Below, in pieces: positions 218 to 6,873 of a stretch of DNA of 20,436 nt; position 1 is the stretch's first letter; each line of letters begins with the position of its first letter. Source of the stretch: a virus (lineage: Duplodnaviria > Heunggongvirae > Uroviricota > Caudoviricetes); IMG/VR virus record IMGVR_UViG_2690316086_000007, positions 1 to 20,436 of that record; one strand, written 5' to 3'. A program made the translations under genes and the position numbers. The notes beneath the pieces were generated by a model. That model ran no database searches and had not been told where the DNA came from. It saw nothing but the letters and a program-made list of their open reading frames with translations.

Positions 218-2851
218 GTGGGTAAAAAACTCATGGCATCCCTTGAGGAAGCCGGACAGCGTGAAAAGCTGGCACAAAGCATCATCAGCAAGCGTCAGGC
301 AACAGAACAAGACCCGGTGGCCCGTGCTTTTGCCACACTGAAGGTGCTTCCCGTTTATCTGCGTGAACCTCTGAGCCGCCACCTCTCTTTCCTGCGCAAA
401 AAACAGGAAGCCGATCGCCAGAAAGGCAAAAAGAGCTGGCAGGCTGAACGCTACGCGCGCGGAACCCTGCGCAAAATATTCGAACGTCTGGACCGCACCG
501 ATCACCGCTGGCTGACACCGGGTTATCGCTCCCTTGCCGGACGCGAACGCCTGGACGATTTGCTTTACCTGCCGCAGCTCAACAAACACCAGATACAGAC
601 GCTGGCCACCATGACGGCGGCGATGTTCAGCAGCACCTTCGAAAAACTCTGCGATGGCTTTGGCGCGACTGATGGCGAACTGACCATGGATGTAACGCTG
701 AAGGCGTATCAGATGCTGGCCCGCATGGCGTTACACCTGCACGCCATGCCTCCACATTATGACGCACTGACAACAGACAAAGACCGGAGGAACGAACCGG
801 ACACGGAGCTGCTGCCGGGCGCAATCCTTCGCCTGACCTGTGCGGAATGGTGGAAACGCAAACTGTGGCTGTTACGTTGCGAGTGGAGAGAAGAACAACT
901 CCGCGCCGCCTGTCTGGTTTCCAGAAAAACATCACCCTATCTGAGCCAGGACGCGTTAAGCGAGTTTCGCGCACAGCGCGAGAAAACACGCGATTTCCTG
1001 AAAAGTTTCATGCTGGAAAATGAAGACGGGTTCACGATTGATCTCGAGACAGTGTATTACGCGGGAGTAAGTAACCCGGTTCACCGTAAGGCAGAAATGA
1101 TGGCCACCATGAAGGGGCTGGAACTTCTGGCCGAAGCCCGTGGCGACAGAGCGGTGTTTCTGACTGTCACCTGCCCGTCAAAATACCACGCAACAACGGA
1201 GAACGGTCATCCGAATCCCAAATGGAACGGGGCCACTATGCACGACTCCAGCGATTACCTGGTTAACACGTTTTTTGCGGCGGTCCGCAAAAAACTGAAC
1301 CGCGACGGCCTGCGCTGGTATGGCATCCGCACGGTGGAGCCTCATCATGACGGCACGGTGCACTGGCACATGATGGTTTTTGCTCATCCTGACGAGATTG
1401 TAACCATCGTGTCCCACGTCTGCGATATTGCCATTCAGGAAGACCGCCACGAGCTGGGCAATGACATAACTCCGCGTTTTAAGGCGGAGTACGTCGACGG
1501 CTCAAAAGGCACGCCAACCAGCTACATCGCCACCTACATCGGAAAGAACCTGGACAGCCGCGCCGTGGATGGCATCGACCCGAAAACGGGCAAGCCACGC
1601 GTTGACCACGAAACAGGTAAATCAATGGCCGAGAGCGTGGAGCGCGCCATCGGCTGGGCGCGCCTTCACCGGGTCCGTCAGTTCCAGTTCTTTGGCATCC
1701 CCTCCCGTCAGGTGTGGCGTGAACTGCGCCGCCTTGCCAGCCAGATGGCACGCAATCCGGAAGGCCCGCAACGGCTGAAAGATGATGCAATGGATGCGGT
1801 ACTCGCTGCCGCCGATGCCGGGTGTTTTGCCACCTACATTGAAAAACAGGGTGGCGTGCTTGTTCCACGCAAGGACTACCTGATTCGCACCGCCTACGAC
1901 CTCGCAGATGAGCTGAACGATTACGGCGAACAGAGCGTACAGATTTACGGGATCTGGTCACCACTCATCGGGGAATCCTCCCGTGTGTGCACGCATCCGG
2001 ATAACTGGAAGCTGGTAAGACGTAAACCAGAACCGGAAGACAACGCCCACGAAAATGGTTTTGACCTTCAGGGCGGCCCTGCCGCCCCTTGGACTCGTGG
2101 CAATAACTGTCCCCGTGTACAGGAAACGGACAACAACGGGACAGAACAGCCGGAAGAACGGCCAGCACCGTGGCCGCAGCTTCCTGACGGCGTTGAAGTG
2201 AACGAATGGATGCATTCACTGAAACGGCACGAACGCCGGGCGCTGATGCGTTCGCTTCGTGACAAACAGGCAAAAAACAGCAGCGATGAAATGCAGAACT
2301 GGACACAGAGCCGCAAACAGCCACAGCCTTTGCCTGATAACCACGAGTTACTCGCTAAAGAATGGCGGGAGTCTGCTGAATCTCTCGGCCTGCATATTGG
2401 TGAACAGCAGATGCAGCACCTGTTACGGGGCGGCAGCCTGTACGTTGACGGCAGCATCATTGCACCGCAGGGATTTGAAATTGTACGCAAACCGGATACC
2501 CGCCCGGACAGCCAAATCACGCAGCTCTGGCAGCGCCTGAGCCGTAATCACGGCGTAAGCAGCACGGAGATCCGCCATAACCCGGTCGCCAGCTATCTGG
2601 AACAGCTGGGGGCATCAGACCCCGAAGCCGCCGCACGTCTGGTATCCACACTTCAGCAGGACCAGAACACCATGCCCACCCCCGTTACCGTGCTTTCTGA
2701 CATGCTGCGCGCCATCCGTGACGCAGAGCACGCACAGAGAATCAGTGAAACCACTGAACGCGCCCACCGCAAAGCAGACCTGCTGCGGGGTAGCCTGACC
2801 AGTGGAAACAAAAAAACAGACAGAAACGGGATTCACAAATCCCGTAAATGA
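218..2851 (+). CDS. A: Rolling-circle replication initiation endonuclease, P2 gpA family
   Basis: 877-aa ORF with motifs TVTCPSKYH, VEPHHDGTVHWHMMVF (HUH-type), YIATYIGKNLDS and GWARLHRVRQFQFFGIP, collinear with P2 gpA as recalled. Start is uncertain (GTG 218 or ATG 233), and the frame stays open upstream to the IS junction at 128. Confidence 0.85.
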   Translation: MGKKLMASLEEAGQREKLAQSIISKRQATEQDPVARAFATLKVLPVYLREPLSRHLSFLRKKQEADRQKGKKSWQAERYARGTLRKIFERLDRTDHRWLTPGYRSLAGRERLDDLLYLPQLNKHQIQTLATMTAAMFSSTFEKLCDGFGATDGELTMDVTLKAYQMLARMALHLHAMPPHYDALTTDKDRRNEPDTELLPGAILRLTCAEWWKRKLWLLRCEWREEQLRAACLVSRKTSPYLSQDALSEFRAQREKTRDFLKSFMLENEDGFTIDLETVYYAGVSNPVHRKAEMMATMKGLELLAEARGDRAVFLTVTCPSKYHATTENGHPNPKWNGATMHDSSDYLVNTFFAAVRKKLNRDGLRWYGIRTVEPHHDGTVHWHMMVFAHPDEIVTIVSHVCDIAIQEDRHELGNDITPRFKAEYVDGSKGTPTSYIATYIGKNLDSRAVDGIDPKTGKPRVDHETGKSMAESVERAIGWARLHRVRQFQFFGIPSRQVWRELRRLASQMARNPEGPQRLKDDAMDAVLAAADAGCFATYIEKQGGVLVPRKDYLIRTAYDLADELNDYGEQSVQIYGIWSPLIGESSRVCTHPDNWKLVRRKPEPEDNAHENGFDLQGGPAAPWTRGNNCPRVQETDNNGTEQPEERPAPWPQLPDGVEVNEWMHSLKRHERRALMRSLRDKQAKNSSDEMQNWTQSRKQPQPLPDNHELLAKEWRESAESLGLHIGEQQMQHLLRGGSLYVDGSIIAPQGFEIVRKPDTRPDSQITQLWQRLSRNHGVSSTEIRHNPVASYLEQLGASDPEAAARLVSTLQQDQNTMPTPVTVLSDMLRAIRDAEHAQRISETTERAHRKADLLRGSLTSGNKKTDRNGIHKSRK

Positions 2852-2934
2852 GCAAAAAACGTGCCGCGATATATGAGGCGCGCACAAAACAGGCAAAAGC
2901 GGGATTTAAAAATCCTGTAAACGATTAATTAATC
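2827..2934 (+). promoter_or_regulatory. Palindromic repeat pair plus 12-bp perfect palindrome upstream of parM; candidate operator/centromere-like site
   Basis: CGGGATTcacaAATCCCGtaaa at 2827-2848 (perfect 7-bp arms) and GGGATTTaaaAAATCCtgtaaa at 2901-2921 share a ~21-bp unit 74 bp apart. GATTAATTAATC (2923-2934) is a perfect palindrome just upstream of the parM RBS (AAGGA 2940-2944). Confidence 0.35.
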
Positions 2935-2952
2935 AACATAAGGAAAAGCGAC

Positions 2953-3912
2953 ATGAAAATTTGTATCGACGACGGCTCCACCAACATCAAGCTGGCATGG
3001 GCTGAGAACGGCGAACGCCGCAACGCCATCAGCCCGAACAGCTTCAAGTCGGAATGGTCTGCGCCGTTCGGTGGCACGCAGCCCGCGAACTACATGCTTG
3101 ATGGCGTGCGCTATGGTTTTGATCCGGTCAGCGATCGCTTTGTCCAGACGACCGACACGCAATACCAGTACAGCGATGTGAATGTCATTGCCATTCATCA
3201 CGCACTGGTCAAATCAGGCATCACGCCACAGGAGGTGGATGTGGTTGTCACCCTGCCACTGAGCGAGTATTTCGACACAAACGCACAGCCGGATATGGCC
3301 AACATCAGCCGCAAAAAATCGAACGTTATGCGCCCGGTGGAGTACCAGAACGGCGAAGCATTCACTATCCGTAACGTACGGGTTATGCCTGAATCCATTC
3401 CGGCTGGCTTTAAAGCACTGGCTGACATGAGTCCGTTTGAATCCCTGCTGATTGTGGATTTAGGCGGAACCACACTGGATGTGGCAAAGGTTCAGGGGCA
3501 ACTGGCAGGTATCAGCCAGGTGTTTTGCGATCCACACGTAGGCGTTTCCCTGATGGCCGATGCCGTACTGTCGGTGATGGCCACTAACGGTATGCGTACC
3601 AGTCACCACATCGCCAATACCATTATCGAACATCGCCATGATGAAGCCTGGTTGCGCCAGCACATCCACAATGACGCGCATTACGCCAGCCTGATGGCGG
3701 TTATTCGTGAAAAGGAAGAAACACTGAAACAACGCGTGATCCGCGCGCTGGCGGGCTTTTCGGGTTACGGGCGGGTGATGGTTGTCGGTGGCGGGGCGGA
3801 GATTGTGGCACCCGCTATCCGCGAAGCCTGCGGAGTTAATGCGACTTTCATCGCGGACGGGGTGCCACAGTTTGCTCTGGTTAATGGGCTGTACGCAATG
3901 GACAAGGAGTAA
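2953..3912 (+). CDS. parM: ParM/StbA-family actin-like segregation ATPase
   Basis: 319 aa; collinear similarity to plasmid R1 ParM as recalled (IDDGSTNIKL, ISPNSFK, YSDVNV..HHAL, VMPESIPAG, IDLGGTTLD, FSGY, VGGGAEI, LVNG). RBS AAGGA 8 nt upstream of ATG. Confidence 0.85.
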   Translation: MKICIDDGSTNIKLAWAENGERRNAISPNSFKSEWSAPFGGTQPANYMLDGVRYGFDPVSDRFVQTTDTQYQYSDVNVIAIHHALVKSGITPQEVDVVVTLPLSEYFDTNAQPDMANISRKKSNVMRPVEYQNGEAFTIRNVRVMPESIPAGFKALADMSPFESLLIVDLGGTTLDVAKVQGQLAGISQVFCDPHVGVSLMADAVLSVMATNGMRTSHHIANTIIEHRHDEAWLRQHIHNDAHYASLMAVIREKEETLKQRVIRALAGFSGYGRVMVVGGGAEIVAPAIREACGVNATFIADGVPQFALVNGLYAMDKE

Positions 3913-3916
3913 ACCA

Positions 3917-4228
3917 ATGACGACACCAACCAGACGGATAAGTTTCTATCTGAAGCCCGCCGCCGTCAAGAACGAAGGCGAAGCATGCGCCTGGCTGGAC
4001 AGCCTTACACCAGAAGCCCGCAAAAGTGGTCAACGCGTGGCTTTTCTGGCCGGACTGGCACTTATGAAAATTAATCCGGCAGAGGCTTACCGACTGGCTG
4101 CATGGGCTGACGATGAAGCGTTATCCCTGACACAAACCAGGACAGAACGCCCCGCATCACAGCCAGTATCAACCGCACAGATAACCAGTCAGATGGCCGG
4201 AAATATCCGGGCGTTATTTCCTGAATAA
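3917..4228 (+). CDS. parR: ParR/StbB-like partition adaptor (ribbon-helix-helix type)
   Basis: 103 aa from ATG 3917, 4 nt after the parM stop, with GGAG RBS. Similar to R1 ParR as recalled (ISFYLKP.., AFLAGLAL, C-terminal ..RALFPE). The longer ORF from 3782 overlaps parM and is rejected. Confidence 0.7.
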   Translation: MTTPTRRISFYLKPAAVKNEGEACAWLDSLTPEARKSGQRVAFLAGLALMKINPAEAYRLAAWADDEALSLTQTRTERPASQPVSTAQITSQMAGNIRALFPE

Positions 4229-4236
4229 CACAACAT

Positions 4237-4254
4237 CAGGGCGAGTTCGCCCTG
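4237..4254 (+). terminator. GC-rich hairpin immediately after parR (possible terminator, no U-tract)
   Basis: CAGGGCG-agtt-CGCCCTG, a perfect 7-bp stem 9 nt after the parR stop, followed by CTCTCC rather than a T-run. Confidence 0.3.
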
Positions 4255-4291
4255 CTCTCCACCTCAGAACATAAACAAAGAGAACGACTTA

Positions 4292-4675
4292 ATGAGCGAA
4301 ATCAACTATCAGGCATTACGTGAACGTTATTCACCTGTGCCAGTACCGAAATGCCCTATTTGCGGCGAGGAAATGTCAATTCAGCGAATATCTGGAGCAC
4401 AGGTTGTTTATGCCTGCTCCGGTTATGGTGATGATGGAGATTTCAAAATTGGCCGAACTCTTGCCGACGAACATTATGAAAAATCACGCGTAACAGTGTT
4501 GGATGTCGGGAATCCTGAAGTATTGGCGCTACTTGATTGGCTGGAAACCAAAGACAACCGAATCGCTGAACTGGAAAAAATCGCCACTGACTATGCACTT
4601 AAATTACAGAAAGCACAGGACGCATTAAAGTACGCCGCTTTGCTGCATAGCAGGACAGCGCAGCTACAAGACTAA
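4292..4675 (+). CDS. Hypothetical protein with N-terminal Cys motif (CPICGEE..YACSGYG) and C-terminal predicted coiled coil
   Basis: 127-aa ORF with AAGAGA RBS-like sequence 8-9 nt upstream; lower GC than flanking phage genes. I recognise no homolog. Confidence 0.5.
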   Translation: MSEINYQALRERYSPVPVPKCPICGEEMSIQRISGAQVVYACSGYGDDGDFKIGRTLADEHYEKSRVTVLDVGNPEVLALLDWLETKDNRIAELEKIATDYALKLQKAQDALKYAALLHSRTAQLQD

Positions 4676-4766
4676 CTTAAAGCGGAAGATTAATACATGG
4701 TGAGTCGGGGTAATTTGTTTTTATCCCGACAAATAAACAAAAAAAGTGGACTATCTCTGTAGTATC

Positions 4767-5297
4767 TTATTCAGCATCGTCTCGTGCAGTCTGTGCATAC
4801 GTCACAACAACGCCCAATGCATTAGTTTTCTTTTCAACATAGATAATATTGTCATATTCATAGTTACCATACGGATAGCAAATAAGAATATTTTTATGCA
4901 GATCGGGATCATCAACAAACGCTCCGGAACAGCTTCTTGAACTACCGGATGTATACTCATACGGTGCAACATATGGTGATGTTACTCCTGGTAAAAAATA
5001 AGTCACCATCATAAGAGGGATAATCAGGAATATCCCTGTAAGAATGCAAGAGCCAGCATAAACCTTCAGGTATTCCGACAGTCCTTTCCAGCCACTTTGC
5101 TTCACTACCCCCCTCTTCACCAGAAACAAGGAGAAGAAAAAGGACATACCCATACTACACAAGATGTAATAATTGGATATACGCGAATTAAGATATGTAA
5201 TCCTGTAGATATCTGCCCTCCACCAGTAAAAGAGGAAAATAATCCCTAGCACTGAAACAGTCATGCAAATCAAATAAGGATATGAATCTTTCTTCAT
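4767..5297 (-). CDS. Hypothetical integral membrane protein (3 predicted TM helices plus ~70-aa C-terminal domain), AT-rich cargo gene
   Basis: 176-aa ORF. Hydrophobic segments YLICMTVSVLGIIFLFYWW, YYILCSMGMSFFFSLFLV and SCILTGIFLIIPLMMVTYFL. Markedly AT-rich, with codon usage unlike the surrounding phage genes. Weak RBS. Confidence 0.5.
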   Translation of the reverse strand: MKKDSYPYLICMTVSVLGIIFLFYWWRADIYRITYLNSRISNYYILCSMGMSFFFSLFLVKRGVVKQSGWKGLSEYLKVYAGSCILTGIFLIIPLMMVTYFLPGVTSPYVAPYEYTSGSSRSCSGAFVDDPDLHKNILICYPYGNYEYDNIIYVEKKTNALGVVVTYAQTARDDAE

Positions 5298-5826: not shown

Positions 5827-6873
5827 TCAGGATGTGGGCTGGGTGTCTAACAGTGCGTAAGGGTTAAAGCGGATCACCTCTTCGCCAAGCCAGTCATTGA
5901 TGTGCTTCATGGCCTCCATGACGGGCATCAGCTCGTTAATTGCGTAAACCCGCGCGGCCTTCTCCACATCACCAAACGCACTTTTTTCGCCCGGCATCGC
6001 CCCCATCAGTTGCGGCGGAACGCGGTGCGCAGCCAGCACATCATCACGGGATGCCGCCTTAACATTCATGAACTCATCCTTTGCGGTGATCTGCTGGAAC
6101 GGCAAAATTTGCACCCCCTCTTTGCCCCCGTTGGGAGCATGGATGAGCACGTTTTTAAACGCACCACCACCACGCGCACCCTGTAACGTTTCTTTCAGGG
6201 AGTCCATGCTTTCGCGGTTTACCTGCGCTGCACCGATGTAGATGATGCACCCGGCGTGGGATCCATTGTCGTAATACAGTTTTCTGAACATGTCCGCCGA
6301 ATGAGACAGGCTGGCCGAGAGTAATGCGCCAAGATATTCCGGCATGCCGTAAATTTCCTGGTTAATGTCCGGATTCATCAGGTGGCACACTTTGCCAGGG
6401 CGAAACTGAAACGCGTCCTTGCCATCCTGCACATACCACCATGATTCAAGATCGCTTCCGCGTCGCATGTATTTCGCCAGTGCGTGCCGTAATTTAAGCG
6501 GTTCGCCGAGCATATTGCTTCGAAGCTCAAGGAATGCGTTACCGAACACAAACCAGTCCAGCGCCAGCGCCGAGAAATCCTGCCGGGAAAGCAGCGGGTG
6601 CGGGATGTAGCAACCGAGTAATACATTGCGCTTAAAGTAAAGCGCAGACTGATGCCAGGACGTTTGCCGGGCAGCTCTTGCCAGACCGTACCAGTCCACC
6701 GGGGTTTCATACCACCGCCCGTTATCAGCACAGTACATATTGTCCAGCAGGTCATGCCCGGTCAGGCGATAAGGACCATCAAATGTGAATGCACTGAGCG
6801 ATGATTCTTTCCTGAGCGCATCAGCGAGATCAATGCGTGAACTCATGCGCACTTTTTTATTTTTTCTGCTCAT
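5827..6873 (-). CDS. Q: Portal protein, P2 gpQ-like
   Basis: 348-aa ORF immediately downstream of and translationally coupled to the terminase gene (minus-strand TGATG overlap at 6871-6875); position and size match P2 Q. Confidence 0.8.
   Translation of the reverse strand: MSRKNKKVRMSSRIDLADALRKESSLSAFTFDGPYRLTGHDLLDNMYCADNGRWYETPVDWYGLARAARQTSWHQSALYFKRNVLLGCYIPHPLLSRQDFSALALDWFVFGNAFLELRSNMLGEPLKLRHALAKYMRRGSDLESWWYVQDGKDAFQFRPGKVCHLMNPDINQEIYGMPEYLGALLSASLSHSADMFRKLYYDNGSHAGCIIYIGAAQVNRESMDSLKETLQGARGGGAFKNVLIHAPNGGKEGVQILPFQQITAKDEFMNVKAASRDDVLAAHRVPPQLMGAMPGEKSAFGDVEKAARVYAINELMPVMEAMKHINDWLGEEVIRFNPYALLDTQPTS

Follow-up and report, generated by a model that had tools for sequence, protein, structure and literature searches.

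A putative parC-like site of paired inverted half-sites upstream of the parMR genes of a P2-like prophage

Introduction

ParMRC is the textbook bacterial machine for pushing DNA, and in all type II partition systems parC lies directly upstream of parM and parR (PMC5016525). The present analysis concerns the region at 2795-2945 of a stretch of viral DNA of 20,436 nucleotides (IMG/VR record IMGVR_UViG_2690316086_000007, positions 1 to 20,436; this whole stretch is called the window below). The window represents a P2-like prophage (P88/Xuanwuvirus type), and in the region a few inverted repeats, which begin within the end of the replication endonuclease gene gpA, precede homologs of parM and parR. 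We found no study of this phage ParMR module in the literature. The larger question is what role the module has in a prophage that about one in four sequenced E. coli carry. If a natural ParR/parC pair made do with a few inverted half-sites, it would illustrate how compact a type II centromere may be and in what other arrangement it may occur, and with the cis site known, the use that an integrating phage makes of a plasmid partition machine becomes directly testable. If, on the other hand, the repeats are an autoregulatory operator only, they would be an ordinary member of a well-known family.

The parC of R1 is 159 bp long and consists of two sets of five 11-bp direct iterons and a 39-bp promoter core. 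It is curved, binds ParR at approximately one dimer per iteron and adopts a U shape in the complex (PMC2241845), and ParR binding requires two iterons only (PMC9426499). In pSK41, parC is made of contiguous 20-bp repeats that are each bound by two ParR dimers, with a sub-site of ~10 bp per ribbon-helix-helix (RHH) dimer (PMC5016525, PMC9426499). Functional centromeres with about four repeats have also been described, namely in pCW3, which has four 17-bp repeats (PMC9426499), and in srpC of SXT/R391 (PMC4489591).

Two described systems belong to elements that, like the phage, integrate into a chromosome. The srpMRC system of SXT/R391 is a type II-like module in a normally integrated, transiently circular element. 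Its centromere consists of four 13-bp repeats, direct as well as inverted, in the leader upstream of the ParM-like gene, and it is expressed from an upstream promoter, with none inside the centromere (PMC4489591). For srpMRC, centromere binding and plasmid stabilisation were shown experimentally (PMC4489591), whereas for the phage module both would be predicted from its sequence; furthermore, SrpR has no detectable similarity to ParR, whereas the phage ParR is a clear member of PF10784. The second system, AlpAC/alpS of the Corynebacterium glutamicum prophage CGP3, comprises an actin-like protein and an adaptor whose binding sites are repeats ahead of its own operon; AlpAC connects the circular DNA of the excised phage with filaments, and efficient replication of the phage depends on it (PMC4446434). 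By analogy, AlpAC could serve as a model for the role of ParMR in an integrating phage, although the proteins are unrelated in sequence, the host and the type of phage are different, and the adaptor gene comes first in the operon.

Results and Discussion

From its sequence and position, we consider it likely that 2813-2934 is the cis-acting ParR-binding region, i.e., the parC equivalent, of a phage-borne type II ParMR module, because the repeats immediately precede parM-parR, and this is the place of parC in all type II systems. A first-pass annotation of the window had already seen a centromere- or operator-like region at this place, and in this it was right. The site is most likely a bipartite, parC-like ParR operator/centromere that is assembled from paired inverted half-sites in two blocks. 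As read from the sequence, it would be non-canonical in the type of its units (dyads) and in their number, and canonical in its position, its bipartite layout and its bending signature.

The two palindromic copies reported in the first-pass annotation are both present. Copy 1, CGGGATTCACAAATCCCGTAAA, at 2827-2848, ends immediately before the stop codon of gpA (TGA, 2849-2851). Copy 2, CGGGATTTAAAAATCCTGTAAA, occupies 2900-2921, such that it starts at 2900 and not at 2901, and the spacing between the starts of the two copies is 73 bp and not 74 bp. The description of the region as "only" two 21-mers plus a 12-bp palindrome is correct in that all of these are in the sequence, but it falls short in that the repeats extend to 39 nt and the palindrome shares the core of the dyads. 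A repeat search returned two blocks of 39 nt that are 82% identical and 73 bp apart. Block A (2813-2851, plus strand) is composed of the A-rich flank AAAACAGACAGAAAC, dyad P1 and TAAATGA, and block B (2886-2924, plus strand), the second copy of this direct repeat, is composed of AAAACAGGCAAAAGC, dyad P2 and TAAACGA and is conserved in Hafnia. The shared A-rich flank, AAAACAG(A/G)CA(G/A)AA, lies 5′ of the dyad in both blocks, and each block has one dyad of the pattern CGGGATT-N4-AATCC(C/T)G. P1 (2826-2845) reads ACGGGATT-CACA-AATCCCGT, a perfect 20-bp palindrome (8+4+8) and a putative site for two RHH dimers. P2 (2900-2917) reads CGGGATT-TAAA-AATCCTG, where most relatives have AATCCCG. The 12-bp palindrome GATTAATTAATC at 2923-2934, which we call P3 (GATT-AATT-AATC), is a third copy of the GATT-N4-AATC core and starts 20 bp after the GATT core of P2 (2903). 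The two blocks are separated by a core of 34 bp (2852-2885), the most polymorphic non-coding stretch.

Both 39-nt blocks and all three dyads are confined, within the window, to the 140 bp upstream of parM. Chance alone would give 0.05 matches to the 22-mer pattern per window, and GATT-N4-AATC occurs three times in the 20,436 bases (2830, 2903 and 2923), as compared to 0.33 expected occurrences; none of 100 shuffles reached three. Elsewhere in the window, there were no tandem repeats (TRF), no clustered half-sites and, at up to three mismatches, no further dyads beyond chance. The earlier observation that R1's ten 11-bp direct iterons are absent is thus borne out, since TRF reports no tandem array, while the R1-type array is plainly visible in pAA, which was used for comparison. 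Nor are there additional iteron arrays in the locus that the first annotation might have overlooked, the blocks and dyads being all that it contains.

The whole candidate parC (2795-2945) carries A-tracts that span both blocks and are helically phased at 10.5 bp, from which an intrinsic bend is predicted. The periodicity of AA dinucleotides at 10.5 bp has a power of 1.87 over 2795-2945, which is in the top 0.06% of all 151-bp segments of the window and is reached by 0-0.1% of shuffles. The corresponding power is 2.16 in the R1-type parC of pAA, 2.31 in the pOXA-48-type parC and 1.74 in the Hafnia homologue, and coding controls gave no signal at this period. In the comparison with pAA, at most 0.05% of shuffles attained the power of either site.

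How does the site compare with the parC of R1? Both lie directly upstream of parM-parR, and the proteins are homologous (ParM is ~46% identical, ParR belongs to PF10784). Both are bipartite, with two repeat blocks around a core of 34-39 bp, and both the R1-type parC and the phage site have strong 10.5-bp A-tract phasing, the curvature being predicted from this phasing. Unlike R1, however, the phage site is without 11-bp direct iterons; its units are inverted half-sites, six of them in three dyads. The blocks are 73 bp apart, as compared to 94 bp in the R1-type site of pAA, where the iteron sets appear as a 46-nt repeat. Furthermore, the phage core is variable and without a recognisable promoter, and the left block shares its sequence with the 3′ end of a phage gene. 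With respect to unit length, the phage site is akin to pSK41, because P1 measures 20 bp, which is also the distance between the starts of P2 and P3. However, the pSK41 repeats are direct, tandem and present in four copies, whereas the phage sub-sites are inverted and the units are split 1 + 2 across the 34-bp core.

The parC regions of pOXA-48-type IncL/M, IncFIA and IncI-gamma/K plasmids belong to the same ParM/ParR family and likewise have bipartite repeat blocks upstream of parM. They differ from the phage site in their repeats (T-rich 10-bp units, TTGCAT motifs), in the beta-strands of their ParRs and in the length of these proteins, which have 138-147 aa as compared to 103 aa in the phage. 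The IncI-gamma/K region mixes direct and inverted TTGCAT/ATGCAA motifs. In the pOXA-48-type plasmid (L005, 1066-1178), the two T-rich blocks are also 73 bp apart, and their sequences are unrelated to the phage repeats. Comparison with the parC of the plasmid homologs, which the first-pass annotation had advised, thus yields a common bipartite layout and, for the pOXA-48 type, a common spacing, with unrelated repeat sequences. Because this layout and the A-tract phasing are like those of R1-family parC, the region is not a stump. The earlier suggestion of a "minimal or degenerate" centromere is at odds with the two blocks, the 34-bp core, the R1-like phasing and the conservation of the half-sites across genera.

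The proteins themselves leave little doubt about the family. ParM, the actin-like partition ATPase (2953-3912, plus strand), has the Pfam domain StbA_N (E 1.6e-81) and the ParM C-terminal domain (E 1.3e-68). It matches the crystal structures of R1 ParM (1mwk) over residues 2-316 with an E-value of 2.5e-92, and the nucleotide-binding motifs DDGSTNIK and DLGGTTLD are readable in its translation. ParR, the predicted RHH adaptor for centromere binding, of 103 aa (3917-4228, plus strand), whose gene starts 5 nt past the stop codon of parM, belongs to PF10784 (Plasmid_stab_B, E 1.9e-25). A sequence-only phmmer search with ParR against the PDB gave no match, and a family profile was required; the profile of ParR relatives matches the ParR of pB171 (2jd3) with an E-value of 1.2e-10. 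Because of these matches to family domains and to the R1 and pB171 structures, the cassette is, by sequence homology, a genuine type II ParMR cassette, and it is located in the non-essential region after gene A.

The identity of ParM increases from ~46% with the R1 type to 51-52% with the nearest true plasmid ParMs (IncFIA, IncL/M pOXA-48-type and IncI-gamma/K). In PLSDB, all matches with more than 60% identity, six in number, are copies of the phage itself. As judged by such identities, the ParM lineage is peculiar to these phages. The protein is 98-99% identical across 80 phage contigs, and a close relative is encoded by 248 IMG/VR contigs.

Along ParR, an N-terminal strand (RRISFYLKP) is followed by a hypervariable linker and by a C-terminal tail (NIRALFPE) that is conserved. 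In 22 variants, residues R6-P14, which form this strand and are predicted to be the RHH strand, as well as the C-terminal NIRALFPE are invariant or nearly so. Within the tail, N96, I97, F101 and P102 are invariant, and the tail aligns with the C-terminal ends of plasmid ParRs; it is this tail that we infer to contact ParM. The N-terminal RHH strand is predicted by alignment to family members only, and the RHH fold is weakly modelled. An AF2 monomer of low confidence (pLDDT 57.5) has an unstructured N-terminal stretch, two helices, a disordered linker and a C-terminal helix, and a Foldseek search of the PDB with this model returned nothing meaningful.

A further property of ParR is its mosaic structure. 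The first 18 and the last 8 residues are invariant, and residues ~20-95 fall to roughly 50% identity. In one such comparison (window 3917-4228 versus L003 2501-2812), the neighbouring ParM is still 98% identical and the upstream DNA is unchanged. The mosaicism suggests recombination or diversifying selection on the helical domain and the linker.

Of the 84 ParR relatives, nearly all belong to Escherichia and a few to Cronobacter and Hafnia, and all examined contexts that reach upstream have the order gpA-ParM-ParR in a P2-like prophage. Other branches of PF10784 differ both in the strand and in the repeats upstream of parM. R1-type ParRs have the strand RRTIAFKLNP and A/C-rich 11-bp iterons, pOXA-48-type ParRs have NRKCSFYIYP and T-rich 10-bp units, and IncI-gamma/K ParRs have SRRCSFELFP and TTGCAT/ATGCAA motifs in both orientations. 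The combination of a constant ParR strand with constant half-sites in the phage lineage is as would be expected of a cognate pair; this is neither covariation nor proof.

For the conservation of the repeats, the statistics are based on 50 distinct IMG/VR haplotypes that were picked by ParM similarity, a choice that is unbiased for the repeats (51 rows including the window). This ParM-anchored set was used, and a pattern-based IMG/VR set was left out of the statistics, because the latter requires intact half-sites and is therefore conditioned on them. The Hafnia and Cronobacter loci came from a search for contigs encoding relatives, species-representative genomes having given three near-identical loci only. 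The contigs of the most divergent ParRs (P0031, P0066 and P0028) stop short of the upstream region, such that the comparison excludes them. The two-dyad pattern as such occurs in 105 IMG/VR contigs, and in 102 of them parM starts at most 80 nt downstream.

The half-sites CGGGATT/AATCCC are preserved in loci from Escherichia, Salmonella, Cronobacter and Hafnia, while the N4 spacers vary. Among 14 Escherichia/Salmonella loci, changes are found mainly in the N4 spacers (CACA to TACG, TAAA to TCAG), at one position of P1 (GGGATT to GGGACT) and in the stretch between the blocks. In Hafnia, both dyads keep GGGATT and AATCCC exactly, despite much more diverged surroundings, and the 73-bp spacing is retained; the spacers are new (CATG in P1, TGAA in P2), and the GTAAA flank is not kept. 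Cronobacter has a perfect P1 and one change in P3. Half-sites that are kept while the spacers change would be the pattern typical of a dyad protein site. In quantitative terms, 3 of 26 positions in the P2 and P3 half-sites are polymorphic among the 50 haplotypes, which are interrelated, as compared to 21 of 63 other non-coding positions (one-sided Fisher p 0.028). The 34-bp core is polymorphic at 44% of its positions, similar to the gpA tail (44-45%), versus 7% in the P2 half-sites. The latter are nearly invariant, and the N4 spacer between them (TAAA/TCAG, and TGAA in Hafnia) is the most variable spot.

P3 occurs in three haplotypes, GATTAATTAATC (GATT..AATC) in 40 of the 50, GGTTAATTAATC (GGTT..AATC) in 5 and GGTTAATTAACC (GGTT..AACC) in another 5. 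At positions 2 and 11 they form a symmetric series from A/T through G/T to G/C, in which the second change restores the dyad symmetry, and the inner TTAATTAA is invariant in the Escherichia haplotypes. This series among related haplotypes suggests selection for dyad symmetry. However, a path from A-T through G-T to G-C is also typical of RNA helices, which raises the question whether the dyads are RNA hairpins rather than protein sites. They could be terminators on the minus strand that shield gpA from antisense transcription, or stem-loops in the 5′ untranslated region of parM. In keeping with this, P1, P2 and P3 all fold on the plus strand. On the minus strand, P1 is an 8-pair stem followed by a T-rich tail that was flagged by the terminator scan and folds at -10.2 kcal/mol (z -2.6), and the A-rich flank common to both blocks would be the U-tract. 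We nevertheless regard RNA hairpins as very unlikely. No gene on the minus strand reads into the region, parM, parR and the Ead-like gene all being on the plus strand; the P2 hairpin of the minus strand is not the preferred fold in the window (z -0.6); P3 has a 4-bp A/T stem, which cannot terminate transcription; and on the plus strand, no U-tract follows the hairpins. Furthermore, the two copies and the different genera share the sequences of the stems and not the pairing alone, a pair is broken in the common P1 variant, and an Rfam search of the whole window gave no match. Covariation of an RNA helix was considered and rejected. Of the three common transitions, the one in P1 is compatible with wobble pairing on the minus strand, whereas those in P2 and P3 are so on the plus strand, which gives no coherent RNA reading.

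P1 lies inside gpA (218-2851, plus strand; Pfam Phage_GPA, E 2.5e-128; 95-97% DNA identity to P884B11, P88 and others) and, as had been noticed at the outset, it overlaps the last codons of this gene, of which it encodes the final eight (NGIHKSRK). The location of P1, together with the fact that the lineage-specific C-terminus of gpA is always linked with the cassette, could indicate that the dyads are sites for another factor, be it an accessory of gpA or of the replication origin or a host nucleoid protein, which the A/T-rich, bent region would attract, or that they are left over, without function, from an old duplication at the edge of the cassette. To our minds, this is slightly less probable still than RNA hairpins, because the three dyads are found nowhere else in the phage window, because the non-coding P2 and P3 are more conserved than the core between the blocks, and because a remnant from which gpA has been deleted, in E. 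coli EC7518, still holds P3 together with parMR. No known motif of a P2-family regulator was recognised by eye either.

The EC7518 prophage remnant (L022, 2150-3811) has a DUF4761 gene joined directly to TAAACGATTAATTAATC plus parM-parR. Its gpA and the dyads P1 and P2 are deleted, and P3 and an intact parMR remain. As for gpA in the window, it has 877 aa, and its Phage_GPA domain spans residues 124-448 only. The C-terminal 200 aa are present only in 14 records of Xuanwuvirus-type phages, all of which carry parMR.

Several observations weigh against the interpretation of the region as a parC equivalent. Every characterised ParR has been reported to bind direct repeats (PMC9426499), and inverted half-sites therefore would be a departure. 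The gpA tail and the parMR cassette are always linked, so that co-occurrence does not allow the repeats to be assigned to parMR rather than to gpA. The conservation of P1 is confounded by its overlap with gpA codons, and P1 is less constrained than P2, since it tolerates the uncompensated change T2832C (GGGACT) in 12 of the 51 rows. Hafnia retains the left half of P3 only (GATTAAT) and has lost the right half, and P2 of Cronobacter carries AAACCC, which is one change. Overall, the support for constraint on the half-sites is modest (p about 0.03 in interrelated haplotypes). Lastly, and unlike in R1 parC, a consensus scan of 2500-4800 identified no sigma-70-like promoter, and a relaxed hexamer scan of the window, Hafnia, Salmonella and a second E. 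coli lineage returned weak candidates, none of them conserved.

Because the candidates of the relaxed scan are weak and not conserved in relatives, no promoter was placed, and TTTAAA-N16-AATTAA and TGAGCA-N17-TATGAG were rejected for this reason. The 34-bp core, which is where R1 has its promoter, contains no conserved promoter-like hexamers. The palindrome at 2923-2934 is thus present and perfect, as it had been described, but its placement over the likely promoter is unsupported by the consensus and the relaxed scans. Between gpA and parM, the terminator scan found no plus-strand terminator, such that read-through from the phage early operon is possible. In SXT, srpC lies in a leader that is transcribed from an upstream promoter (PMC4489591), and by analogy it is plausible that parMR is co-transcribed by such read-through from the early operon. 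It may then be expressed mainly on induction. For translation of parM, a Shine-Dalgarno sequence, AAGGA, can be read at 2940-2944 (plus strand), 8 nt before the ATG, and is invariant in the 50 haplotypes.

How might a parC equivalent of this kind operate? Since the half-site centres of each dyad are ~10 bp, or one helical turn, apart, two RHH ParR dimers could sit side by side on one face of the DNA. P2 and P3, at a distance of 20 bp, would provide an array of four half-sites for four dimers beside the ribosome-binding site of parM. P1 would be located 73 bp (~7 turns) upstream on the same face of the intrinsically bent, A-tract-phased DNA. The two ParR clusters could then fold the DNA into a U or a partial ring, as ParR does on the parC of R1, and the conserved C-terminal tails of ParR might capture the ends of ParM filaments. 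Bound ParR probably also limits parMR expression, since P2 and P3 abut the start of parM. The cargo would probably be the phage genome in circular form, excised or in replication, rather than the integrated prophage. In this scheme, ParR binding, its stoichiometry, the bending, the repression and the segregation of DNA are what we infer, and the order and spacing of the repeats are what is seen.

One can go further and propose that a bona fide R1-family ParR reads palindromic half-sites instead of direct iterons, and that no more than three dyads on bent DNA suffice for a functional segrosome, by which a P2-like phage would move its excised, circular genome or hold on to it. Such a segrosome might act at induction, while the lytic phage replicates by rolling circle, or when the phage is transiently carried in a plasmid-like state. 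We see this as possible, though on balance doubtful. If it were true, a quarter of E. coli genomes would carry an active phage centromere.

The 181-bp junction at 2780-2960 is present in 1304 of 5426 complete E. coli genomes, among them O157:H7 and ST131 strains. In all 39 listed matches that cover the whole junction, it lies between genes for a "replication endonuclease" and "ParM"; the listed exception to the gpA-parM junction is the gpA-deleted remnant of EC7518 (H61). At 1441 of 1443 places the junction is chromosomal, i.e., in a setting where inheritance needs no centromere. This would fit an operator without centromere function, at which ParR on the dyads regulates parMR or blocks read-through from the early operon, the array being too small for a segrosome. 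The module then would no longer segregate DNA, or ParM would have another role in the phage cycle. The small number of half-sites (4-6, versus 10 iterons in R1) speaks for such an operator as well, and chromosomal ParMR systems with roles other than segregation have been described (PMC12270681; bioRxiv 10.1101/2025.06.27.661541). However, ParM and the ParR tail are strongly conserved, which a bare repressor/operator pair would not require. Furthermore, working centromeres with about four repeats do exist (PMC4489591; pCW3, PMC9426499), and two iterons suffice for the binding of R1 ParR (PMC9426499). We therefore hold a pure operator to be unlikely, and continue to favour a ParR-binding region that is the equivalent of parC.

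Some E. coli genomes have two to three copies of the gpA/parM junction, and thus co-resident prophages that share the same candidate centromere. Such copies could lead to partition interference between the excised forms. Furthermore, an E. coli isolate from a cat has a circular "plasmid" of 34.5 kb (L023; NZ_CP148288.1, 1-34461) that is a complete P88-like phage genome, from the integrase through parMR and gpA. This "plasmid" is either an episomal, excised form of the phage or an assembly of induced phage DNA.

In the surroundings of the cassette, the DNA of 2600-4700 is 94-98% identical to phages P884B11, P88, PhiR44_2, Shae_phiSM and others. Downstream of parR follows an Ead/Ea22-like gene (4292-4675, plus strand). 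The portal gene lies at 5827-6873 on the minus strand, and between it and the Ead-like gene there is an AT-rich open reading frame for a membrane protein of 176 aa with several hydrophobic segments (4767-5297, minus strand). This reading frame has no Pfam or NCBIfam match. It resembles a moron or cargo gene, and the contents of this slot vary among related phages.

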